Source: Girardia tigrina (lineage: Eukaryota). Taken from it: a DNA stretch of 64,000 nt. Below the pieces are notes generated by a model that saw only the letters and a program-made list of their open reading frames with translations, did no database searches and was not told the DNA's origin. Below are positions 23,364 through 25,693 of this stretch, one piece after another. The stretch covers positions 31,317 through 95,316 of the forward strand of contig MQRK01219756.1 of the NCBI GenBank assembly GCA_001938485.1, written 5' to 3'. Each line of letters begins with the position of its first letter. The stretch's first letter is position 1. The position numbers and the translations under genes were made by a program.

Positions 23364-25693
23364 TATTAACAACATCAATATGAGTTTTATAACATTTATT
23401 AATATCACAAGCGCATTCACTATTTAACATCTCTCTTGATCATGTTGTGGTAGTCGATAAGGCTTCACTAAGACTGGTTCTCCACGAGTTTATATTTTGT
23501 GTATCGTTAAGGAAGTTGTCCCAACATCCCACTTGTCAGTCATGAATATTGATTTATATTCTGTTAATAGTCTCATTTGTTGGTTGACAACTTTGGTGTT
23601 ATCTATTTCTTTAATTCTCTTTAGTCTGTCATCATCTGTTGGACTATCTCTAATCATCCATATATCACTTGAATCTATAGTTTACTTCTTTAGTTTAATT
23701 CTAAATTTGTCGGATGGTATCTCCTGCTATCATTTCTGGGTTGAGTTCTTTGACTACATAAAACTCTATAATTTTTTGTACTCCTTCAATTATTACTTTT
23801 AATTTAACAATTTCATAATTTATAAGTTCTGAATCATTTGCACAATAAATGCGTTTACTCGTTTTCTTTATCTGAACATCTTTCATACTTTTAAGTATAT
23901 CCGCTTTAACAACATTTACTTTGGCACCGGTATCCAAAAGACATTCAACATTCATATTCTTTGTATTAAATTCAATGCTTAGTCTTCTATTCAATTTGTC
24001 ATATCTAATATTGAGCTTTGATATTTTCAAAATTTCTTCCTGTTTCAACTTTTGCGATTTTGTCTTTATCTCCTTATCAAAACAGTATGTTTCAAATTCT
24101 TTTTTCCAACAATCTAATTCACAAACTTCGAGAGGGGTATCTTCCAACACACAATCACACATACAGTCAAACATACCATTACATACACAATCACATACAC
24201 ACATACAATCACATTTTTAGTTTTTAGTGAAGCACACTGATCAACTCTCCTTATGATCGTGCATCCTCGTTTCCCTGGTCTTTGTCGTATACTTGTCTTT
24301 TATCTGTAAACATTCTTTGCCTCGAGATTCCTTCATTTGATCGTGTTTCTTCATATTCGTTGTAATCGTTTTCATCATGCATTTCTGCAATATCATATCT
24401 TCGATTTTTATGCCTCTGATGATTTTGTGGGTTATTTGTTCTTTGTCATTCATTTTTTCTGGCATATTGGTCTCTTTCTTTAAATCTATTCTTATTCATG
24501 TAACATTGCGTCCTGATATGGCCATTTTTATTGCAATAAGAACACTTTATATTTGGACAGTTTCTTCTGATGTGTCCTTCTTCGTGGCATGCCAAGCATT
24601 TTACAACTTTTGAATAGTTATTTCTCGGTTTGTATTCATTATTTCTTTGATTAGTGTACCTATTTTCGATATTTCTTTGTTGGTTGCGTTCTATATAGTG
24701 TGGGTTACGTTTGCCTACTGTTTTCCATTCATCATGTATACCTACCGTATTGTATGCCGCAACTGTTTCTTCTTTTTCCATTTTGCGTAGTTCATATATA
24801 TTTGAAACTAAATCTGTTATGTCCTTTGCTTCAGTAGCTCCTCTCAATTTCAATTCTCTTTTCACCTCATAATCGTCAACCATATTCATGCTAAACATGA
24901 TTGAGCAGCTTTTTCTTAGAAAGTGTACTTTCTGTTAATATCGTTACTAATTCTTCGGATTTTTTGAACGTTTCTTCTGGATCTGAAGATCCCCACCGGA
25001 GATTTAAAATATCCTTCGTTGTGTCAGGCAGAGATTTTTCTTTCACAAATGTCGTTTTAAGCTTTTCTTTATACGTATTTCCATCTGCTTCTCAAAATTT
25101 TGTGATTGCTGATGAAGTCATAAAGATCGTCACCATCACTAATCTTCTATCTTCTGTTATACCCATAATATCCGCATAACGTTCGAAATTTTTTATGAAG
25201 TCATCTAATTTCAACTCGGATCCATCAAATTTTTTTGTGTCCCATAATGTTCGTTGTCACATGAGCTGTGGTCGCCATATTAACAACATCAATATGAGTT
25301 TTACAACATTTATTAATATCATAAGCGCATTCACTATTTGACATCTCTCTTGATCAATATATTTCTGAGTTCAAACTAATTATTTTCAATAAATGAAAAT
25401 CTGTTAATAAAAATTATTAATTATAAAGAATCTAATTGGTTGAAATTAAATCTAAACATTTTTCAAAAATAAGAACATATTACATTAATATATTAAAATT
25501 TTAAATACATTAAAAAATAAATAATGCATTCAAAAATTATTTGAAATCTTTTTACTTTAAAATTAAATTAAATCCTTTTTAATTAGAAGGAAATAAAGAA
25601 AATATTAATCATCCATCTGTGTAGGAGAGGCACAATCCGAATCAACATACAACATGCACAAATATCAACACACAATTCAAAACATTCCTCGCA
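23364..25693 (-). mobile_element. Gypsy element (family A copy 1): 5' LTR 25278-25693, PBS, gag with two CCHC-type knuckles, protease, then deletion to the last ~78 bp of the 3' LTR
   Basis: Perfect aggat TSD (23359-63 and 25694-98). PBS TGGCGACCAC. CLACHEEGHIRRNC, CSYCNKNGHIRTQC, LLDTGA. 23364-23442 repeats 25278-25355. Confidence 0.93.

Follow-up and report, generated by a model that had tools for sequence, protein, structure and literature searches.

The LTR-PBS junction

Where does Gag begin in an LTR retrotransposon whose LTR runs directly into the primer-binding site (PBS)? The question is raised by three element copies in a stretch of 64,000 nucleotides of the Girardia tigrina genome (contig MQRK01219756.1, positions 31,317 to 95,316; hereafter the window), in which the last base of the LTR and the first two bases of the PBS form an ATG in frame with gag. 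The original prediction took this junction ATG to be the Gag start codon. An LTR that ends in A and abuts a PBS beginning with TGG always makes an ATG, so conservation of the junction would by itself be uninformative on initiation. We conclude, with a probability of roughly 0.7, that these are decayed Ty3/gypsy copies with a PBS in the gag frame, that Gag of the window copies likely starts within the LTR, at an upstream ATG, which would make the junction ATG a probable internal methionine, and that related leaderless families likely start at the junction. The parts of the copies are listed below.

25278..25693 (-): copy 1 5' LTR, TG...TA, 416 bp; target-site duplication (TSD) ATCCT at 25694-25698 and 23359-23363
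25342..25344 (-): copy 1 LTR ATG in the gag frame, 22 codons upstream of the junction; likely Gag start
25309..25314 (-): copy 1 AATAAA, a likely poly(A) signal that encodes Asn-Lys in the gag frame
25276..25278 (-): copy 1 junction ATG, the last LTR base plus TG of the PBS
25256..25277 (-): copy 1 PBS, also gag codons; 22 nt with an 18-nt tRNA-Arg(ACG) complement and four single-base bulges
24222..25275 (-): copy 1 gag, broken by frameshifts and stops; two zinc knuckles
24269..24275 (-): copy 1 GGGAAAC at the gag end, putative -1 slippery site
23701..24216 (-): copy 1 start of pol with aspartic protease; the remaining pol is deleted
23364..23442 (-): copy 1 3' LTR remnant, the last 79 bp
39751..40202 (-): copy 2 5' LTR; flanks diverge at 40202 and 39751
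39827..39829 (-): copy 2 in-frame ATG inside the LTR, 26 codons upstream of the junction
39729..39751 (-): copy 2 junction ATG and bulged 22-nt PBS, 18 of 18 tRNA bases
38745..38751 (-): copy 2 GGGAAAC, a putative slippery site
37483..37599 (-): copy 2 reverse transcriptase fragment, flanked by stretches of N
42704..43206 (-): copy 3 5' LTR, of a different subfamily
42795..42797 (-): copy 3 in-frame ATG inside the LTR, 31 codons upstream of the junction
42682..42704 (-): copy 3 junction ATG, with a decayed PBS of 6 contiguous matches; the bulged 18-nt form is present in its subfamily
41704..41710 (-): copy 3 GGGAAAC, followed by pol in the -1 frame
49404..49832 (+): solo LTR of copy 1 type, TSD ACACA, which fixes the LTR end

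On the minus strand, TGGCG comes immediately after the LTR end (...TTAATA) in each of the three copies, at 25278, 39751 and 42704. This reads A|TG GCG (Met-Ala) and leads into the Gag N-terminal peptides, as originally predicted. All three copies are broken. The frameshift already noted after the junction ATG of copy 1 falls within a run of A residues around 25230. In copy 2, position 39709 is an N and the frame is lost at about codon 73. Copy 3 indeed has no other ATG between the LTR end and the FDG motif, and it carries an in-frame stop at codon 26 that the original prediction did not mention.

The LTR end is placed at TAATA by 5-bp TSDs in copy 1 (ATCCT), in the solo LTR at 49404-49832 (ACACA) and in locus L104 (AAACT); the TSD pair of L103 is mismatched. 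As neither copy 2 nor copy 3 has a paired 3' LTR in the window, homology is the basis for their LTR ends. Twenty contigs of one RNA run leave the LTR at 39751 into dissimilar flanks.

The junction 12-mer TTAATATGGCGA has 3,771 matches in the host genome (G000) compared with 59 for a reversed control, and this abundance is not due to chance. Junction forms with a spacer of 1-2 nt number 78 compared with 70 in the control, which is background, in agreement with the predicted zero spacer that is seen in the three copies. A metagenome scan with Gag returned a single weak locus, which at the junction was no member of the family, and the junction pattern had 121 matches in viral contigs, with a Gag relative encoded in none of the 80 retrieved.

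Additional solo or partial LTRs of the copy family are found in the window at 26455-26906, 33132-33433, 1733-1974 and 45843-45973. A palindrome with 73-nt arms (43229-43383), related to 17068-17276, lies just outside the start of the copy 3 LTR.

Element architecture

The longer copies consist of a Ty3/gypsy element of about 5 kb with LTRs of about 415 bp, a 5-bp TSD and a purine tract abutting the 3' LTR. The gag gene encodes two zf-CCHC zinc knuckles, and the order of pol is PR-RT-RH-IN. The best solved-structure match of the reverse transcriptase is Ty3 (E 7.5e-65), and the Gag capsid region resembles Retrotrans_gag clusters with a feature score of 0.94, which is a lead only. At L103, L091, L420, L422, L423 and L410, which include members of the families H and I described below, pol is read through the purine tract and stops in the first bases of the 3' LTR, leaving no room for env. 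An errantivirus (an env-bearing gypsy element) was ruled out, as there is no env ORF between pol and the 3' LTR. Membership in Ty1/copia was also ruled out because IN does not precede RT; the elements are Ty1-like only in their 5' layout, in which the gag frame spans the LTR end and the PBS.

GGGAAAC is conserved at the gag end of the three window copies with pol in the -1 frame, and is a candidate for programmed frameshifting. A hairpin downstream of it (z -2.1, -1.5 and -1.2) is suggestive only. The pol frame has a Cys-rich stretch after GGGAAAC whose make-up is like that of the Cys-rich leader encoded by the LTR. Among the long pol relatives 11 of 82 end in the same RGM, and among the 40 pol relatives listed first many terminate in a GG or RG motif followed by a few residues, with more than one frame represented. 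The closest relatives are, with few exceptions, unnamed metagenome proteins. Open frames as long as 1,085-2,260 aa proved to be only runs of N.

The PBS is read in the gag frame

We surveyed the reading frame in the first 100 junction copies listed, 94 of which were long enough to read. The Gag motif occurs in the junction frame in 64 of the 94 (2 of these also have it in another frame), solely in another frame in 7, and in no frame in 23. The junction ATG is thus in the gag frame, in support of the original prediction on this point. Between subfamilies, the PBS codons have a pN/pS of 0.47 in the gag frame and of 1.87 and 1.12 in the others, and the 25 codons after the PBS have a pN/pS of 0.25 in the gag frame and above 1 in the others. 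As had been proposed, the PBS is itself coding, and it is read in the gag frame.

An in-frame ATG within the LTR

In the three window copies the gag frame is open upstream of the junction, without a stop, to an ATG at 25344, 39829 and 42797. This ATG lies 66, 78 and 93 nt from the junction in copies 1, 2 and 3, respectively (22, 26 and 31 codons), and 4, 3 and 5 out-of-frame ATGs lie between the two, one of them always 11 nt upstream of the junction. Given the open frame to the LTR ATG and the out-of-frame ATGs before the junction, Gag of the window copies likely starts in the LTR. Judging from the sequence, the junction ATG of these copies is likely an internal methionine.

Eight subfamilies were sorted by eye from 72 of 100 copies, the other 28 being too decayed, too short or different; the subfamilies share ancestry and are thus not independent. 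The upstream in-frame ATG is kept in all eight, at an offset fixed for the subfamily in 60 of 70 measurable copies. Its offsets from the junction (66, 78, 93 and 96 nt) are all multiples of three, and so are those of AATAAA (36, 39 and 42 nt), which is read as Asn-Lys. A TCAA or CCAA (YCAA) motif common to the subfamilies lies 8-17 nt before the LTR ATG, at a spacing that is not a multiple of three. TCAGT, tried as the initiator, was wrong, the motif actually in common being TCAA/CCAA. The LTR ATG is the first ATG following the YCAA motif and has a purine at -3 in 8 of 8 subfamilies, and the codon following it varies across the eight while the ATG persists.

Stop codons are rare in this part of the frame. 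Over the last 20 LTR codons there are 33 stops in 1,640 codons of the gag frame, compared with 52 in the +1 frame and 414 in the remaining one; the rate in gag itself is 38 of 2,455, and farther up the LTR it is 361 of 3,686 (about 10%). Summed over the eight subfamilies, stops per copy amount to 0.97 compared with 20.2 in plain shuffles and 9.1 in shuffles preserving codon-position composition, a ninefold difference. The LTR-encoded codons from -31 to -2 have a pN/pS of 0.91 and the last ten a pN/pS of 1.54, with lower values in the +1 frame. These codons show no amino-acid selection, which counts against a start in the LTR. They have T at 52-74% of third positions, and the +1 frame is thereby also stop-poor; the richness in T could stem from triplet-like slippage.

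Subfamily A1 has the upstream ATG at the fixed offset in only 28 of 37 copies. A TATA-like TATATT occurs in A1 17 nt before this ATG, so the cap site could fall downstream of it. The spread of an A1 sublineage lacking the upstream ATG is not supported, as the losses are dispersed across the tree (7 changes; 8.2 on average in shuffles). Subfamilies A1, A2, B, C and D have out-of-frame ATGs 11-17 nt before the junction, probably in U5. Most subfamilies have one to five out-of-frame ATGs between both in-frame ATGs, and subfamily G has none in 4 of 4 copies. Public RNA runs gave shares of at most 0.31, as contigs, and comparison of RNA contigs with copy 2 and a family H element identified related sequence in two RNA libraries but did not reveal a start site.

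Sister families and Gag relatives

Sister families with LTRs ending in CA have 1,681 matches in the host genome compared with 11 in the control. Among 30 copies read, several of these families have leaders of 5-12 codons with the ATG downstream of AATAAA. The CA-ending loci L292, L295, L296, L299, L305 and L307 have a leader of 5 codons, and their PBS matches over 16 nt with two bulges, which is a second bulged form.

Families H (37 exact matches) and I (199 exact matches) are leaderless, with an upstream in-frame ATG in 0 of 20 copies each. In family H an in-frame stop lies 9 codons upstream in 20 of 20 copies and the next in-frame Met is usually codon 33; in both families the nearest ATG in any frame is mostly 50-80 nt away. 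The LTR of family H is 200 bp long and its ends are set by TSDs, in 3 of 3 elements with two LTRs and in 2 of 2 solo LTRs, and the LTR end of family I is set by the terminal inverted repeat TGTTAG...CTAACA. Since H and I have no upstream in-frame ATG, a start at the junction likely holds there. The original prediction would thus apply to these families and not to the window copies on which it was based, where the in-frame LTR ATG, the absence of a stop and the 3-5 out-of-frame ATGs argue against it.

A search of protein representatives identified 51 Gag relatives at E<=1e-10, most with an identity of 25-42% to the query. In 33 of them a leader of 5-38 residues precedes an N-M-A-T-like motif, 9 begin at MAT and 9 are fragments or fit neither rule, these starts being gene-caller choices on short contigs. 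None of the 51 has the PBS read in its other two frames.

The primer tRNA

A tRNA 3'-end pattern gave 20 matches, consisting of tandem tRNA-Arg(ACG) genes and of reverse tRNA copies, CCA included, fused to LTRs. The fused copies start precisely at the final base of the LTR and extend for 18 nt, for 38-39 nt or over the whole tRNA, and some have a base change opposite position 58. The stop sites are presumably the known modified positions 58 and 37. Taking the genes and fused copies together, the primer is mainly tRNA-Arg(ACG). The tRNA-Arg(UCG)-type primer proposed earlier was therefore correct in the amino acid and not in the anticodon: the matching host genes have ACG, and UCG occurs only in one fused copy (L158), so that another isoacceptor may serve as a primer too.

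Reverse copies of mature tRNA-Arg, 18-76 nt long, are joined to LTR ends at L031-L035, L039, L107, L157-L162 and L325-L354, and with their stops near 58 and 37 they would be a genomic record of primer read-through and modification sites. Tandem tRNA-Arg arrays with a spacing of about 430 bp occur at L036 (G000:C199729) and G000:C240781. One member has a GCG anticodon, which is unusual for a eukaryote.

A bulged PBS

The contiguous match between the PBS and the tRNA is only 7-11 nt. The PBS stretch TGGCGACCACG is present only in copy 2, and the contiguous match of copy 3 is 6 nt. All 18 bases of the tRNA complement fit the 22 nt after the LTR with four single bases looped out. Of 67 copies with gag, 36 have this bulged 18/18 match, window copies 1 and 2 among them, and the places of the bulges shift by subfamily (8, 9 or 11; 13 or 14; 17; 19). 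Shuffled targets of six representatives reach an 18-nt match in 0-10 of 3,000 trials. In subfamily G only 14 nt are matched (shuffles 72 of 3,000).

At four-fold third positions beyond base 8, G or C is found at 67 of 70 paired positions, 19 of 94 bulged positions and 209 of 609 positions in gag, the 67 tracing to essentially one site retained in six subfamilies. Conserved His-Val-Thr codons or a CACGTG palindrome may explain part of the bulged match. Single insertions would break the gag frame, so the register of the bulges probably arose by substitutions. A search downstream of the PBS for further tRNA boxes of the Ty1 kind, run without a control, gave scattered 6-mers only.

Inheritance of the primer sequence

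If the PBS were replaced by a tRNA copy in the manner of retroviruses, many perfect 18-mers would be expected. A perfect tRNA-type 18-mer follows TAATA in 47 cases, compared with 3,771 junctions, and one bulged form alone has 948 exact copies. We read 30 of the perfect-PBS copies: 2 come from a family with a naturally perfect PBS, 5 run into their own gag via a misregistered joint, and 23 join unrelated DNA. A tRNA copy is inherited in about 0.2% of copies, as a raw count across copy ages. These counts, an indirect measure taken from genomic copies, fit a scheme of the Ty1/Ty3 type in which plus-strand products with a tRNA copy are dead ends and the sequence of the primer tRNA is not passed to progeny (PMC5371799, PMC7472051). 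For Ty1 and Ty3, PMC5371799 describes a primer sequence that is not inherited and, for Ty3, dead-end plus-strand products that carry a tRNA copy.

A proposed mechanism and its alternatives

In the reading that we prefer, transcription would start a few bases before the LTR ATG. The selected rule would be that the mRNA's first AUG, in the LTR or at the junction, is in the gag frame, and this one rule would serve families with and without a leader. The extra N-terminal residues of Gag would be an unconstrained on-ramp. tRNA-Arg(ACG) would anneal across 22 nt with four bases looped out. As has been reported for Ty1 and Ty3, the PBS would be copied from the element RNA instead of the tRNA, so that a coding, bulged PBS can persist.

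It is also conceivable, though quite improbable, that Gag starts at the junction ATG across the whole clade, the open LTR frame being produced by T-rich triplet periodicity and the cap site lying downstream of the LTR ATG. The junction ATG is flanked by A at -3 and G at +4, no in-frame ATG precedes it in families H and I, where TSDs or inverted repeats define the LTR ends, the MAT frame alone is seen in the Gag relatives, and the leader pN/pS of 0.91 points in the same direction. However, in five subfamilies the out-of-frame ATGs just before the junction probably belong to U5, the deficit of stops remains ninefold against shuffles that preserve periodicity, and the upstream ATG is retained across subfamilies in which the next codon varies. 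Locking of the frame would also be expected by descent once an ORF spans the junction. A combined scheme, in which the window families use both AUGs and a leaky 5' UTR of about 8-17 nt yields a long and a short Gag, appears unlikely. Very short 5' leaders are leaky for initiation, and the putative initiator motif is at just such a distance from the LTR ATG; subfamily G lacks intervening out-of-frame ATGs, and the sister families indicate that a Gag starting at MAT is viable as a design. In most subfamilies, however, such ATGs do intervene, and the position of the cap site is itself a prediction.

The original prediction further proposed a translation-versus-packaging switch, in which an annealed primer tRNA or a 3' tRNA fragment masks the start codon. 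For families H and I, the U and G of the AUG, along with the following codons, would fall within the predicted duplex, and 22-nt 3' tRNA fragments are described as lowering ERV RNA and protein through the PBS (PMC7472051). In the window families, however, the duplex would lie 22-31 codons inside the ORF, where the primer would cover codons 23-40 and not the start. Primer annealing is normally chaperoned by Gag/NC (PMC1635307, PMC5371799), which would place the primer after translation, and bulges would weaken and not favour the binding of a fragment. We consider the putative switch doubtful. More speculatively, there may be a widespread, apparently unnamed Ty3/gypsy clade that is coding from LTR to LTR, in which the junction encodes an N-M-A-T-T motif of Gag and some families start on a junction AUG masked by bound tRNA-Arg. 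One branch would have rebuilt an 18-nt primer site with four mobile bulges, mostly at codon positions, that primes yet escapes silencing by 3' tRNA fragments, an arrangement workable only because the tRNA copy is discarded at plus-strand transfer. This wider picture is put forward as a tentative possibility.

Comparison with known elements

Two ingredients of this picture are known already, namely a coding PBS downstream of the Gag AUG (Ty1) and an imperfect PBS as a proposed escape from tRNA fragments (mouse ERVs). In Ty1 the Gag AUG lies within the LTR and there is no spacer between LTR and PBS. Ty1 has a 5' UTR of 53 nt, a PBS at nt 95-104 and more tRNA-pairing boxes in GAG (PMC5454406). 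The elements described here resemble it in likely having the Gag AUG upstream of a PBS that is coding (PMC5454406), and, judging by the copy counts, a PBS that is not inherited from the primer (PMC5371799). However, they have the order PR-RT-RH-IN, a tRNA-Arg primer and a candidate -1 frameshift in place of a +1 frameshift. Unlike in Ty1, the junction makes an in-frame ATG, which is the first one in some families, and there is one 18-nt pairing site with single-base bulges in place of separate boxes.

Likeness to Ty3 extends from the reverse transcriptase match and the domain order to the apparent dead-end tRNA-copy products and lack of tRNA inheritance, as described for Ty3 in PMC5371799. The PBS of Ty3 is in two halves in the 5' and 3' UTRs, about 4.8 kb apart, the primer is tRNAiMet and 12 nt of the tRNA are copied, whereas the fossils here have copies of 18 nt, 38-39 nt or the whole tRNA and the PBS lies in an ORF. 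A tRNA-Arg primer is used by 412/mdg1. Compared by description only, gypsy and 412/mdg1 differ from the present elements in their long 5' UTR, and gypsy in its env. Drosophila gypsy is similar in its short PBS (11 nt) located directly 3' of the LTR (PMC1635307).

For the mouse ERVs ETn, MusD and IAP, an imperfect PBS, which is the common form, has been proposed to keep priming and evade 3' tRNA fragments (PMC7472051). According to the same source, their PBS has 0-3 mismatches or indels, lies 2-4 nt past the LTR and within a 5' UTR, and reverts in about half of cases. The PBS described here has four bulges and zero spacer, is coding, and reverts in well under 1% of copies. Saci2-like elements of tapeworms are likewise flatworm Ty3/gypsy elements with a variable PBS, and differ in their 4-bp TSD, fused Gag-Pol and other tRNAs, compared with the 5-bp TSD and separate gag and pol frames here (PMC12471100). 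The elements described in PMC4202319 have a single ORF, unlike the separate frames here. A literature search, run without most subscription papers or Repbase/GyDB, found no gypsy gag start in the LTR or PBS and no bulged PBS, which is weak evidence of novelty.

One genome thus offers paired designs, with families that likely start in the LTR or at the junction and with perfect, short and bulged primer sites. These would allow short reporters and in vitro priming to ask whether the tRNA gates translation and how far priming tolerates bulges. Non-inheritance of the primer has been shown for yeast Ty1 and Ty3, and the copy counts suggest the same for animal gypsy elements. For annotation, PBS finders that require a contiguous match after a spacer would misread the clade, as would ORF finders that start past the LTR.

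Other features of the window

A GIY-YIG ORF (51161-51943) lies within 92-nt inverted repeats (51060-52036) and is a Penelope-like remnant; a palindrome with 66-nt arms is found in its region at 51803-51943. Pieces of a Mos1-type transposase HTH at 17960-18433 and 229-528 are 95% alike and represent mariner remnants. An isolated HSP90 fragment of about 80 codons (48065-48577, minus strand) is probably a decayed gene copy. The HSP90, Penelope and mariner pieces point to an animal source and speak against a microsporidian one. In the GC-richer stretch at 8-14 kb we identified a DUF7047 ORF (12015-12497) and, on the minus strand at 10122, TGGCGACC.
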